Shown: positions 23,520-58,740 of the stretch, piece by piece | How the letters are laid out: each line of letters starts with the position of its first letter | How positions within the stretch are numbered: position 1 is the first letter of the stretch | Origin: Octopus vulgaris | Taxonomy: Eukaryota | Direction: 5' to 3' | Length of the DNA: 64,000 nt | NCBI GenBank assembly: GCA_951406725.2 | Contig: OX597815.1 | Location: forward strand, 34,534,001 to 34,598,000 | Position numbers and translations under genes: made by a program | The notes under the pieces: model-generated | Database searches by the model: none | The model's input: the letters and a program-made list of their open reading frames with translations, nothing else | Told to the model about the DNA's origin: nothing

Positions 23520-23938
23520 AGGCGGCGAACTGGCAGCAACGCTAGCAGGCCGGGCGAAATGCTTAGCGGTATTTCGTCTCCCGCTACGTTCTGAGTTCAA
23601 ATTCCGCCGAGGTCGACTTTGCTTTTCATCCTTTCGAGGTCGATAAATTAAATACCAGTTACGCACTGGGGTCGATATAATCGACTTAATCCGTTTGTCT
23701 GTCCTTGTTTGTCCTCTCTGTGTTTAGCCCCTTGTGGGTAGTAAAGAAATAGGTATTTCGTCTGTCGTTACGTTCTGAGTTTAAATTCCGCCGAGGTCGA
23801 CTTTACCTTTCATCCTTTTGGGGTCGATAAATAAAGTACCAGTTTCGCACTGGGGTCGATGTAATCGACTTAATCCCTTTGTCTGTCCTTGTTTGTCCCC
23901 TCTATGTTTAGCCCCTTGTGGGTAATAAAGAAATATAT
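23520..23938 (+). mobile_element. SINE family B, dimeric form, 14-bp TSD
   Basis: TSD caagtctatcttca at 23506-23519 and 23939-23952; second unit starts at GTATTTCGTCTG. Confidence 0.9.
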
Positions 23939-25080: not shown

Positions 25081-26198
25081 TAGTATAAATGTTACAAGTT
25101 TATTTTAAAACAAGGTACCCGTAAACTGGTCTGACGGCCGCCAGAATTTGAAGTTCCTGCTCGTAAAACAGTTCGGATTATAAGTGGTTCCGGATCATCA
25201 GTGTTTGAAAAGTAGGTGTTGTACCGGTACTTCACCTCACAATCATCCAGAGCGAATACATACCTATGACATTGTCAGATCTGCATCTCAAAAACTAGGG
25301 GTCTCTTTCAGGAGCTGTAATCTCTTCAACTCGAAGCACAACTTCTAGGTTGTTTTCAGAAATGGTCCATCGGATAGATTGACTGACAAGCAAGGTTTTC
25401 TCTCACTAAAACCATTTGTACTCTTATACGCAATAAACTTTTGGCTTCTTCTATCGTTATTATACGGTTTCTGTTCTCTGAAGTAGCAAGTTGTTTACTA
25501 TCTCATCTAGGACCACCTAAGAAGCTTTCACTTCTGTGTCACAAGAATCCTAAAAGAAACCATTATTTTTTCACATCATCATAGAAAGTATCCTAACAAG
25601 ATACTTTACATAAACGTTCAATCCAAGTAAGCAACTTTCTGGAACTCACACGGACCGCAGCCATCTACAGATATTCAAACTGAAAGTGATGCACTGAATG
25701 CCCGTGCTTTGGGTAAATAAATAAAGTTTATTGAAGTTTCTCTTTTAGTTGAATGTAATCGTTAGCGACTTCCAAAGAAAAGGGAAGATAATAAAAGAAA
25801 AGTTTAGAGCTCTTTACTCTTTTACTCTTTTACTTGTTTCAGTCATTTGACTGCGGCCATGCTGGAGCACCGCCTTTAATTGAGCAACTCGACCCTGGGA
25901 CTTATTCTTTTGTAAGCCCAGTACTTATTCTATCGGTCTCTTTTGCCGAACCGCTAAGTGACGGGAACATAAACACACCAGCATCGGTTGCCAAGCAATG
26001 CTAGGGGGACAAACACAGACACACAAGCACACACACACATATATATATATATATATACGATGGGCTTCTTTCAGTTTCCGTCTACCAAATCCACTCACAA
26101 GGCTTTGGTCGGCCCGAGGCTATAGTAGAAGACACTTGCCCAAGGTGCCACGCAGTGGGACTGAACCCAGATCCATGTGGTTGGTAAACAAGCTACTT

Positions 26199-28396
26199 TA
26201 TTTCAAAACATTTGCCATAAAGGCAGTACACAGATTAAGTTAGCTTTGCGGGCTGGACGAGGACATTAATGAAGTGAATGATAATGAAAGAAAGATGATA
26301 AGGATGGGAGAAGACAGAAAGCGCCCGCCGACTTTTGCTTCTCTAAAACATTGTTCTTTTTAAAAAGATAAACACAAACGAGGTATAAAACCTCTTACAA
26401 TTTTTCCCAATTTTTGGGCTTAGCAGTCCATTATTAATACAAAACGAGGTATTAATCCTCTTACAATTTTTCAATTTTTGGACTTAAGTCCATTACTAAT
26501 AATACATATCGTCCTCGAAATAGCTTGTGCCCGCGCCCTCCACCATCAACCACGCCTCCCTCAGAACGTAGTCAAGTTCCGAGTTCGCGTCGCCCGGGAC
26601 CAAGTTATAATCTTCGTTGAGCTCCTTTAGCCCTAGCGTCACGTCGAACGCCACGGCCTCCACAGCTACCTGCGGAGGCCATTCGGGGTCCTGTGTGAAG
26701 GCTAAAGGTGCTCCCTTGTAGTGCTCTTCCATCACTTTTTCAATTTCTCCTCCTCTATAGAAGAGGACCAACACATTTAGTTCTTTCGTTGGCGGCACAG
26801 TTTCCGCCAACGGTATTCCTTCTCTTGTCGGTGGCACAACCCCAACCGACGTAGTTCCGCGACATTCCGGTGCTACACTGACAGCCGGTAATGTCCCGTT
26901 TTTCTTCCTCTTTTTCTTTTTTTTTCCCTTTTCAACTGAGGGGGGTGCGTCTCCTCCGTGGCTGGAAGATTCGCCTTCCTCTCCTCATCCCTATTATCCT
27001 TTGGTGAGCACCCATTGTTGCTCACCTTCCTCTTTCGGCCTCTGTTTGAGGAGTCCTCTGCTTTCTCGGCCGTTATCGTTCCCTCTTCTAGAGGGGTTTT
27101 ACTTAACTGTTCCGGGATCCTATTTTGTTCCCGAGGACAGTTCTTCTTTATGTGGCCGGACTCCAAGCACCGATGACACTTAGGGGGGCGACCCTCAAGC
27201 ATCACCGGGTACCTGCACCCGGCCATTTTCAAAAAATCTGGAAGAACCAGATTGGCTGATTGTGTCCACAGAGTCAAAATTGCTTTCGACCCAACCCAAG
27301 CAGCCGCAGGAAGAACTTTTACATTGAGGAGCTTAGTTTCGCTGTCACCCAGACCCCGGCGGATAGTCTCCTCTATCCACTCGGGTTCTATGTCGGGTGG
27401 CAGTCCGCAGATCCAAGCTTTCATCAATTTCTTTTTTTGTACGTGGGCAGGAATAAGATTTCCTTACCCTCCAAGGGTTTGCTAGCAAATATGCAAGCCT
27501 CTTCAGGGGTGTCAAATAGCAACCACACCGTTGCATATTTGACACCCCTGAAATGAATTTAATTGTTGGCAAATACTCTTCCAACTCCTCCTCAATTGCC
27601 GTCTTTTCGAATAGGGCGATGGTGTCAAGTGCCTTGGAGTAGGTTCTCAACACCACCGTCCTATCTTCACGGTCTTTTAACCACTTTTTGGGTGGTATGA
27701 TTTCCCACTCCAAAATTTTGTTATTTTTCATTGCCATGTTTTTTTAAAAATATATTCAAATTAAACTCAAAAGCAGGAAGAAAAAAGTTCAAAAGTCTAA
27801 ATAAAATTTGATAGATTTTTGAAAAAACAAAAAGGAGAAAGTACAACAGAAGGGAAGAAATTAACGGAAAGTCGCAATAAAGAAAAAAAAACAAAGGGGG
27901 GGGGGGGTTAAATGAAGTTCAAAAGAAAGTTAATAAACAGAAAAAACACAGCAAAAATATTCTGGCCTTGCGGTACTCCAGGCCTGGGTTGAACCTGGAA
28001 CGCCGCAACTGCAACACAACCTCCACAAAAATGGGTCCGAAAGGTAATCCAATAGTGGCTTATTTTTATAATTTTCTTGCGAAGTAGTAAAACACAAGCA
28101 AACAAATTAATTTTTGCGGAGGGGCTACGCCTCCTCAAAAAGCACAATTCTCACTAAAGAGTGAGACCTTAGACACGACAACAGGCAGAGAAATATATCT
28201 GAAGTAAAGTGAAGTCTATTACCCGCAAAAAAATATTAATGCTAGATAACGTTAACTGCTAAATAACATTAAGCAAGCAATAAACTTCACTATGCTTCCA
28301 AAAATACAGAACGTCTTACCTGTCACCGAGTCAAAAGTTCAACATTTCACGTTCAAACACGTGACATTTGCAGGAGCAAAAAACAACACGTCTGTC
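26199..28396 (-). mobile_element. ORF1-only non-autonomous non-LTR retroelement (Tx1-like), inserted in a SINE A head
   Basis: 16-17-bp TSD (26182-26198 and 28397-28412); ~660-bp leader; one disrupted ORF with a CCHC knuckle; ~300-bp 3' UTR ending at AATAAA; no RT, endonuclease, LTR or TIR visible. Confidence 0.8.
26496..27737 (-). pseudogene. Gag-like/ORF1 nucleic-acid-binding protein (~410 aa once three frameshifts are repaired): probable RRM-like region plus CX2CX4HX4C knuckle
   Basis: Track ORFs 27345-27737, 26873-27427 (GRPPKCHRCLESGHIKKNCP) and 26496-26837 are joined by a bridging frame RGVKYATVWLLFDTPEEACIFASKPLEGKEILFLPTYKK. Layout resembles Tx1-clade ORF1. Confidence 0.75.
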
Positions 28397-29203
28397 TGGT
28401 AAGAAGCTACTTACTACACAGCCACTCCTGCGCCTATTTAAGAAGACTGGTTTGCAGTCATGTAATTTTAAGTTCAGTCCCATTTCACCCAATACTTTTA
28501 GCAAGTATCTTCCACTATAGCCCCAGGCCGGTCAATGTCTTGTGAGTGAATTTGGTGGACGGCGTTCATAAACACTGGAAAAAATCTGGATAAAATATTA
28601 CACTTCTTGCCAAATTTGTAGAAAAATTTTTCAATGACAGACCATAGATCACATGATTCTTGTGGTTGTGCGTTAATTGACTTACAAGAAAGGGAACAAT
28701 AAGAGGCTGGATGACTCAGTCTCTAATCCTTCTTTGAAGAAAACCTCTCTCTGCAGAAAACTATTCATCGCTATACTATCCATGCCGTAAGACCCATATC
28801 AACTTCTCTCAAGTACTGCTCACAAGTTCCTATAAGTTTAAAAAAAGTCACGTACAAACTTGTATTTAAATTAACAATTAGACGTCAGAGCAGATGACAT
28901 TCGCCTTATTAATGCTAGCAGTAGTTGTGGGATAATGGGACATTTCGGTTTTTTTTTTGGTTTTTTTTTTTTAGTAACGTTTCTCTTAAGTTTGAAACAG
29001 AAATCGTGCAATAACGAACATTTATCATTCAATACAATTGCTACATGTACATATTGGTATACACACACAGACACAGGCACACACACACTAACACACACAC
29101 ACACACAAAAATACACACCATCACACACAAACAGACGGTATATATGTATACATGGGTGCATGTTTGTATGTGCCAATGTACTCATTCAGACGTGTGTATG
29201 TAT

Positions 29204-47580: not shown

Positions 47581-47992
47581 GAGGCGGCGAGCTGGCAGAA
47601 ACGTTAGCGCGCCGGGCGAAATGCGTAACCGTATTTCGTCTGCCGTTACGTTCTGAGTTCAAATTCCGCCGAGGTCGACTTTGCCTTTCATCCTTTCGGG
47701 GTCGATAAATTAAGTACTAGTTAAGCACTGGGGTCGTTGTAATCGACTTAATCCCTTTGTATGCCCTTGTTTGTCCTCTCTGTGTTTAGCCCCTTGTGGG
47801 TAGTAAAGAAATAGGTATTTCGTCTGTCGCTACGTTCTCAGTTCAAGTTCCGCCGAGGTCGACTTTGCCTTCATCCTTTCGGGGTCGATAAATTAAGTAC
47901 CAGTTTCGCACTGGGGTCGATGTAATCGACTTAATCCCTTTGTCCTTGTTTGTTCCCTCTATGTTTAGCCCCCTGTGGTCAATAAAGAAATA
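47581..47992 (+). mobile_element. SINE family B, dimeric form, perfect 16-bp TSD
   Basis: tataacatcttccggt at 47565-47580 and 47993-48008. Confidence 0.92.
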
Positions 47993-52904: not shown

Positions 52905-53320
52905 TCTTATTGCTTTACTGCCCACAAGGGGCTACACACAGAGGGGACAAACAAGGACATACACACGGATTAAGTCGATTATATCGACCCCAGTGGGTAA
53001 CTGGTACTTATTTAATCGACCCCGAAAGGATGAAAGGCAAAGTCAACCTCGGCGGAATTTGAACTCAGAACGTAGCGATAGACGAAATACCTATTTCTTT
53101 TCTACCCACAAGGGGCTAAATACAGAGAGGACAAACAAGGACGGACAAACGGATTAAGTCGATTATATCGACCCCAGTGCGTAACTGGTACTTATTTAAT
53201 CGACCCCGAAAGGATGAAAGGCAAAGTCAACCTCGGTGGAATTTGAACTCAGAACGTAGCAGCTGACGAAATACCACTAAGCATTTCGCCCGGCGTGCTA
53301 ACGTTTCTGCCCACTCGCTA
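52905..53320 (-). mobile_element. SINE family B, dimeric form
   Basis: Same junction; flanked by cg(a/c)tattctt. Confidence 0.9.
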
Positions 53321-58467: not shown

Positions 58468-58740
58468 ACGGGCTTCTTTCAGTTTCTGTCTACCAAATCC
58501 ATTCACAAGGCTTTGCTCGGCCCGAGGCTATAGTAGAAGACACTTGCCCAAGGTGCCACGCAGTGGGACAGAATCCGGAACCATGTGGTTGGTAAGCAAG
58601 CTACTTTATTTCATATAAATTTGCCATAAAGGCGTTACATAGAGGAGTTGCTGCGGGCTGGACAAAAACATTAATGAGATGAAGATGATAATGATGAACA
58701 AAAATGGGAGCTACTTACCACACAGCCACTCCTACGCCTG
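58165..58740 (-). mobile_element. SINE family A split by a 102-bp insertion in its head
   Basis: Body to 58606, head 58709-58740; TSD agctactt. Confidence 0.9.
58607..58708 (-). mobile_element. 5'-truncated 3' end of a relative of the 26199-28396 element
   Basis: Shares tatttca, atttgccataaaggc, tgcgggctggac, acattaatga and atggg with 26199-26310; TSD at 58599-58606 and 58709-58716. Confidence 0.85.

Follow-up and report, generated by a model that had tools for sequence, protein, structure and literature searches.

The window, that is, the whole 64,000-nt stretch analysed here, is repeat-rich animal DNA. Its minus strand carries, at 26199..28403, an ORF1-only non-LTR element (the rider), counted with a 7-nt target-like 5′ extension. 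The rider is flanked by a target duplication, AAGTAGCTT, with the 5′ copy at 28404..28412 and the 3′ copy at 26190..26198 (both −), and no A-tail is present at the 3′ side. An AATAAA spans this junction, as the rider's last bases are completed by the 3′ target copy. A preliminary description of this DNA had the element start at 28396, about 7 bp short of the start at ~28403 found here, and gave it a 16-nt target duplication. The element is indeed flanked by a duplication, but part of the 16 nt is element-borne and the true length is ~9–10 nt. Where the 5′ and 3′ target copies differ, they agree over ~9–10 nt only, and the next 6–7 nt follow the element type, so these are carried by the element rather than by the target duplication. 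At the 5′ side, CTTAC(C/T)A follows AAGTA(G/A)CTT in 8 of 9 copies with the type A 5′ module, whatever the 3′ flank reads.

The AAGTAGCTT-flanked element sits inside the head of a SINE, and six further target-bearing copies of this SINE lie in the window. The 5′ part of the head, at 28413..28434 (−), has an A-box-like stretch. The remainder, with a simple-repeat middle and a tail, is at 25812..26189 (−; left end approximate), and contains a B-box-like motif (26157–26167, −) and a CORE-like CCTTGGG (26139–26145, −). The labels A-box-like and B-box-like follow the consensus sequences of these boxes, and neither ARAGORN nor Rfam gave a tRNA match for the host SINE. Each insertion splits the two box-like motifs and would silence that SINE copy. 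We call the host CORE-like on its CCTTGGG motif. In the available parts of the sources, CCTTGGG is a motif of CORE domains (PMC5786205) and OR2 is an octopus CORE-SINE (PMC4758252).

From 5′ to 3′ the rider consists of an exchangeable 5′ module of type A (28087..28403), a leader part common to all three 5′ types (27738..28086), ORF1 (26496..27737) and a 3′ UTR (26199..26495), all on the minus strand. ORF1 encodes 414 aa in intact copies. When aligned with a natural intact copy (L246), the copy in the window runs from an ATG at 27737 to a stop at 26496 with three 1-nt deletions (at 27551/27550, at 27439/27438 in an A-run, and at 26943/26942) and 26 substitutions. The three frameshifts described previously, one of them at the A-run, are exactly these deletions, which may be real or stem from assembly errors, and the ~660-bp leader and ~300-bp 3′ UTR of the same description measure 659 and 297 nt in this alignment. 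Within ORF1, an N-terminal region with homology to the ORF1 proteins of two-ORF LINEs (27200..27710, −; limits approximate) is followed by a CCHC zinc knuckle (27134..27181, −), a linker, and a C-terminal globular domain of ~90 aa with a WPPQ motif (26535..26807, −). A direct repeat of roughly 62 nt lies in the 3′ UTR region (26376–26501, −), and a hairpin with a 4-bp stem and a 5-nt loop, also found in the tail of the helper LINE presented below, is at 26213..26225 (−). A second rider, 5′-truncated and from a diverged subfamily (78% alike), is at 58607..58708 (−), inserted at the same base of another SINE copy.

The rider family is young and multi-copy, and the element at 26–28 kb is confirmed as one broken copy of it. 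The best 40 of 3319 candidates from a genome search are all collinear copies with 95–100% identity and without ORF2; 9 are full-length, the others run from ~base 311 on, and one is in two pieces. Two exact 24–25-nt patterns (108 and 40 matches) put the subfamily at 148 copies at least, which is a lower bound. Median pairwise identity among 30 rider copies is 97.8%. Selection by an internal motif gave 30 loci, 7 of them with an intact 414-aa ORF, in which the acidic C-terminal segment is in the same frame as the knuckle, as had been proposed from the broken copy. An apparent ban on intact copies (at least one A-run was out of frame in each of the top 30 copies by BLAST rank; Fisher p 0.002) was discarded as an ascertainment artefact, because 32 of the 100 listed A8 copies are paired with A9, compared with 7 of 33 A7 copies, and because of the 7 intact loci.

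Encoding ORF1p without ORF2p is a family trait of the riders. The earlier statement that no ORF2 remnant exists is borne out, as the best match of 21 ORF2 proteins to the element had an E of 0.47. Between the last ORF codons and the 3′ end lie 317–335 nt in 29 of 30 copies (one was not measurable), and none of the close copies checked has ORF2 between the stop codon and the 3′ UTR.

The first 310 nt of the rider are exchangeable, with at least three types of unrelated 5′ modules occurring on the same body; types B and C replace type A in other copies. Whether many copies share the 2.2-kb structure and the 5′ end GACAGACGTGTTG had been proposed as a check. The structure does recur, but GACAGACGTGTTG is the 5′ end of module type A only, found in 9 of 30 copies. 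A splice-donor-like GGTAAG lies 60–105 nt from the start in all three rider modules and in the helper (L016, L017, L176), and is present in 49 of 55 rider 5′ ends; no spliced rider copy was found among these 55. Modules B and C and the helper have an RGACG motif with an AGT exactly 28 nt ahead of it, an arrangement that type A lacks. This spacing is initiator/DPE-like.

In the ORF1 protein, the zinc knuckle CHRCLESGHIKKNC named in the preliminary description matches zf-CCHC, though weakly (E 0.0044, short of the curated cut-off). Autonomous ORF1s can be aligned with the N-terminal half, whose Atlas (language-model) features score 0.90 to the ZCCHC3-RBD cluster, which has tandem RNA-binding domains plus CCHC, with no Pfam RRM match. 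ZCCHC3-type tandem RNA-binding domains are suggested for this region by the model, and with the CCHC knuckle they may make up a type I ORF1 (RRM-like domains plus CCHC) as in the Tx1 clade. The rider and helper ORF1s are 20% identical. In a tree of 39 ORF1 rows, from which near-duplicates and short frames had been removed, the riders form a clade (100/100, 20 rows) on a long stem, and the helper ORF1 falls outside it, with the sister group not resolved. The only named relatives of the rider protein are from Octopus sinensis, in which one protein, carrying a gene annotation, has 65% identity and nests in the rider clade.

Rider ORF1 is under purifying selection. Between subfamilies, NG86 estimates for pairs of copies, which are related, in part decayed and close to saturation, give a dN/dS of 0.20 for the N-terminal region, 0.21 for the knuckle, 0.47 for the linker and 0.55 for the C-terminal domain. 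These values come from 30 of 45, 39 of 45, 23 of 36 and 80 of 120 pairs, respectively, kept after those with saturated or very low dS were dropped. All usable pairs are below 1 in the N-terminal region (30/30) and the knuckle (39/39), and constraint on the C-terminal domain does not exceed that on the linker.

Diverged riders also have the C-terminal domain, with a WP that hardly varies, and an HMM search over 5,811 frames found the domain in the rider clade only. No homolog was detected in Pfam, PDB sequences, Atlas or 1.84 billion proteins; a single match among the last was rejected, being a tandem-repeat protein scored over 7 stretches. The predicted fold has three strands and three main helices (pLDDT 72), and Foldseek gave no match to this model at E 0.001 in PDB or viral libraries. 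Its best VIA match (Z 4.9, rmsd 3.3, 68 aligned) is under the usual background. Single-sequence folding of the whole rider ORF1 was unusable, with a pLDDT of 40. This domain may be novel, as had been raised before, but autonomous ORF1s also end, after a linker and at the same place, in a globular-looking domain. Profile comparisons between the rider and autonomous C-terminal domains gave P of 0.2, 0.042 and 0.73 and so neither connect the two nor set them apart; two autonomous sets compared with each other gave 0.036 and barely see each other either. The rider domain may represent a rapidly evolving form of one that the whole lineage shares.

Insertion is directed to one base in the SINE head. 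The rider 3′ end adjoins the target in 30 of 30 copies, with no A-tail in any of the 30 junctions, and the same target base is used in 29 of 30 copies when they are picked by an internal motif with the flanks disregarded. A pattern of tail plus target has 758 exact matches, riders and helpers together, and the reversed pattern has none. Among copies, the SINE flanks are 92.3% identical and the adjoining element ends 99.2%, and 5′-truncated copies of several lengths, including that at 58607–58708, lie within intact SINE heads. The insertions are therefore independent. Target duplication, 5′ truncation and independent sites are all present as marks of retrotransposition.

A second SINE of 184 bp occurs in head-to-tail pairs in the window (23568–23935, 47631–47992 and 52908–53275). 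It shares ~30 nt at up to 97% with the helper 3′ UTR, and at several loci it is located at or beside the same SINE-head junction. Among 15 fetched loci with that tail type, 14 have a protein-free SINE at the junction or not more than 4 nt from it.

Three tiers had been predicted, namely a SINE host, an ORF1-only rider and an autonomous LINE at the same base, and all were found. When tail variants were sampled, ORF2 was directly upstream of the junction in 6 of 40 loci, and 10 of 20 longer loci chosen by tail variant hold a two-ORF LINE of 5.41–5.46 kb with the target on both sides, the candidate helper. In its copy L176 both ORFs are open, at 488 and 1150 codons, with EN, RT and zf-RVT scoring above Pfam cut-offs, and the nearest solved relative of the ORF2 is human L1 ORF2p (E 7e-67; R2 reaches only 6e-20). 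The helper has the features of the L1/Tx1 group (two ORFs, and an ORF2 with APE endonuclease, RT and C-terminal zinc finger) and the target-sequence preference, often for repeats, of the Tx1 clade. The label Tx1 fits by these features; a small RT tree, which held no named Tx1 reference elements and had unnamed outgroups only, groups the SINE-site ORF2s together with a support of 0.95. About 75 helper copies are at least 95% identical over a piece of L176 ORF1. The helper is equally young as the rider, with 10 copies 98.9% alike compared with 97.8% for the riders.

Helper ORF1 frames break at recurring lengths of 114, 159, 164, 179 and 226 aa, and rider frames likewise break at A-runs; the helper breaks may come from polymerase slippage or assembly error. 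In the available part of PMC13282606, 13 recently active L1-Tx1 families are reported for O. vulgaris, and no mention of ORF1-only riders was found in that part of its main text; they may be held in its supplements or Zenodo library.

Rider and helper stand in tandem at L187 and L179. In head-to-tail arrays (L031–L035, L187, L179), rider subfamilies ~70% alike are mixed together and with the helper, and each joint rebuilds the target. Riders and helpers also have the same 5′-junction slips, on which the search pattern had no bearing. Twenty two-ORF elements were obtained from the best 150 of 25,803 candidates in a ranking by zf-RVT; none of the 20 is at the SINE site, and their ORF1s are 24–36% identical to a rider ORF1. 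When helpers were searched for via the rider 3′ UTR or the AATAAA pattern, ORF2 was at the junction in 0 of 60, and a rider-type ORF1 followed by ORF2 was found in 0 of 100 junction loci. At least three ORF2 tail types use the SINE site, so which LINE moves this rider subfamily is not fixed.

Elsewhere in the genome, two ORF1-only elements (L067:7187–8431 and L071:6739–8229, both −) lie directly upstream of two-ORF LINEs with other targets. They have Tx1-like tails and are not members of the rider clade, so this genome has probably seen several origins of ORF1-only forms. Other two-ORF families (L059–L061, L066/L067/L069, L070) apparently have their own fixed 3′ flanks, one of which is a (TTA)n microsatellite.

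DNA likeness between rider and helper is confined to the last ~30 nt, and is partly built in, as the pattern that found the helpers demanded the rider's last ~22 nt and also covered the 3′ arm of the hairpin. All four positions of the hairpin pair in 46 of 56 tails. In a set of 26 distinct cores, pairing holds in 87.5% of cells, changes on both sides included; this level is reached by 0 of 500 shuffles and by no slid control, although relatedness among the tails inflates this statistic. As a whole, the 96-nt tail has no folding advantage over its shuffled versions (z 0.54 and 0.24). By eye, a hairpin of this sort can also be made out in LINEs that have other targets, so the hairpin alone cannot explain the choice of partner. 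Since the ORF1s are only 20% identical and the DNA is alike only in the last ~30 nt, the rider is old and not a recent deletion of the helper. The proposal of a HAL1-like Tx1 derivative therefore keeps its ORF1-only state and its helper at the same base, with the derivation placed far back.

We conclude with considerable confidence that the riders are an old ORF1-only lineage inserting at one SINE-head base, likely with the EN and RT of an L1/Tx1-type LINE that uses the same base. Mobilisation in trans by the helper is likely from their shared anatomy. Rider RNA would be made from its own exchangeable 5′ module, running on into the SINE, where the junction-completed AATAAA would end it. The 3′ hairpin would then be the recognition mark for helper ORF2p, which would nick the head of the SINE and use the RNA end that matches the target for priming. 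A 3′ junction that is exact and lacks an A-tail would be accounted for in this way; we infer such priming on read-through target sequence by analogy with SART1/R1Bm. Rider ORF1p would coat its own RNA in cis, and this, we propose, is why ORF1 is kept. Each insertion would rebuild the target, so that riders and helpers could stack head to tail. A bolder version, which we consider doubtful, is a satellite lineage older than any helper family, with its own ORF1p, swapped 5′ promoter modules, a 3′ tail that tracks the helper, and a lineage-specific C-terminal domain, its fold unmatched, acting as an adapter that captures helper ORF2p for rider RNA and overrides cis preference.

Riders might instead be deletions of an autonomous element with a rider-type ORF1, unsampled or extinct, and the LINE at the same base a co-tenant rather than a helper. 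Such an origin would suit the low identity between the rider and helper ORF1s and the long stem of the rider clade, and the genome searches scored the best 40 of 3319 and the best 150 of 25,803 candidates. We nevertheless regard it as unlikely, because the 100 junction loci gave no rider-type ORF1 followed by ORF2, and because every rider subfamily whose dS is saturated has ORF1 alone and still keeps it under selection. In addition, the youngest riders depend on an enzyme that is active today, and young LINEs of that specificity are present.

It is less probable still that the target is set by the rider protein, for instance via its C-terminal domain, and not by the helper endonuclease. Full-length LINEs without that domain sequence use the same base, as does, within 4 nt, the protein-free SINE in 14 of 15 loci of its tail type, even if confinement of the domain to the rider clade among 5,811 frames and the lack of a detected homolog would fit a role particular to riders. 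Target choice is mainly that of the endonuclease, according to the available part of PMC4494074. We give hardly any credence to copying of SINE and element as one unit, by hitch-hiking or segmental duplication, or to the ORF being a processed pseudogene of a spliced host gene. Every copy does share the same SINE context, but block copying is contradicted by flanks far more diverged than the elements and by variously 5′-truncated copies in intact SINE heads. The 65% identical O. sinensis protein, annotated as a gene, could speak for a host gene, but it lies inside the rider clade, and the ORF is homologous to LINE ORF1s of the same genome.

With the riders taken as an old lineage likely served by the same-base LINE, one genome supplies a complete, young and partly intact set of target, ORF1-only rider and autonomous LINE. 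With this set one can test why an ORF1-only element retains its ORF1 although a helper provides one, and by what means a LINE selects its partner RNA in trans, the single-base target serving as a clean read-out.

HAL1 (half-L1) of mammals, reportedly treated by Bao and Jurka in 2010, is likewise a non-autonomous derivative, in its case of the L1 clade, that encodes only ORF1p and keeps multiplying. L1 has a poly(A) tail, in contrast to the 30 of 30 rider junctions without an A-tail. HAL1 has a Transposase_22 ORF1 and belongs to mammals, whereas the rider has an RNA-binding plus CCHC ORF1, belongs to a mollusc and is of independent origin; its insertion is moreover base-specific in a SINE, without a poly(A) tail. 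No mammalian L1-type ORF1 (Transposase_22) was found in the rider, for which Pfam gives the weak zf-CCHC only. HAL1 is described as a mammalian ORF1-only non-autonomous LINE in the accessible portions of PMC5753468 and PMC5786205, and the ORF1 types of L1 elements are taken from that of PMC5203782.

HeT-A of Drosophila (with TART/TAHRE) resembles the rider in being ORF1-only and in standing head to tail in arrays together with partners that carry RT. Its destination is the chromosome end, and it serves the host; the destination of the rider is one base within a SINE that is itself dispersed. HeT-A and Ag-Sponge (Anopheles), which differ in belonging to the Jockey and CR1 clades, are listed as non-autonomous LINEs with ORF1 in the part of PMC5786205 at hand.

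The crocodilian Tx1-Mar/SINEU-3/Mariner-N4_AMi system shares with the octopus a transposon as landing pad, a Tx1 LINE targeting it, a non-autonomous rider and tandems, to judge from the available part of PMC4494074. It differs in that its host is a DNA transposon and its rider non-coding, whereas the octopus has a SINE head as host and a rider with a selected ORF1 of its own; Tx1 in Tx1D of Xenopus is a comparable landing-pad case in the same part of that paper. For SART1/R1Bm, of the R1 clade, the proposal is that an RNA 3′ end matching the target pairs with it once it is nicked and makes the junction more accurate (PMC7265360, available part), whereas such priming in octopus would follow from the A-tail-free junction only. 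The combination of a coding, selected rider with a SINE head as target was not found in the open-access papers searched. As far as these papers go, it is this combination that is new, and with it the SINE head joins the known landing pads of sequence-specific LINEs.
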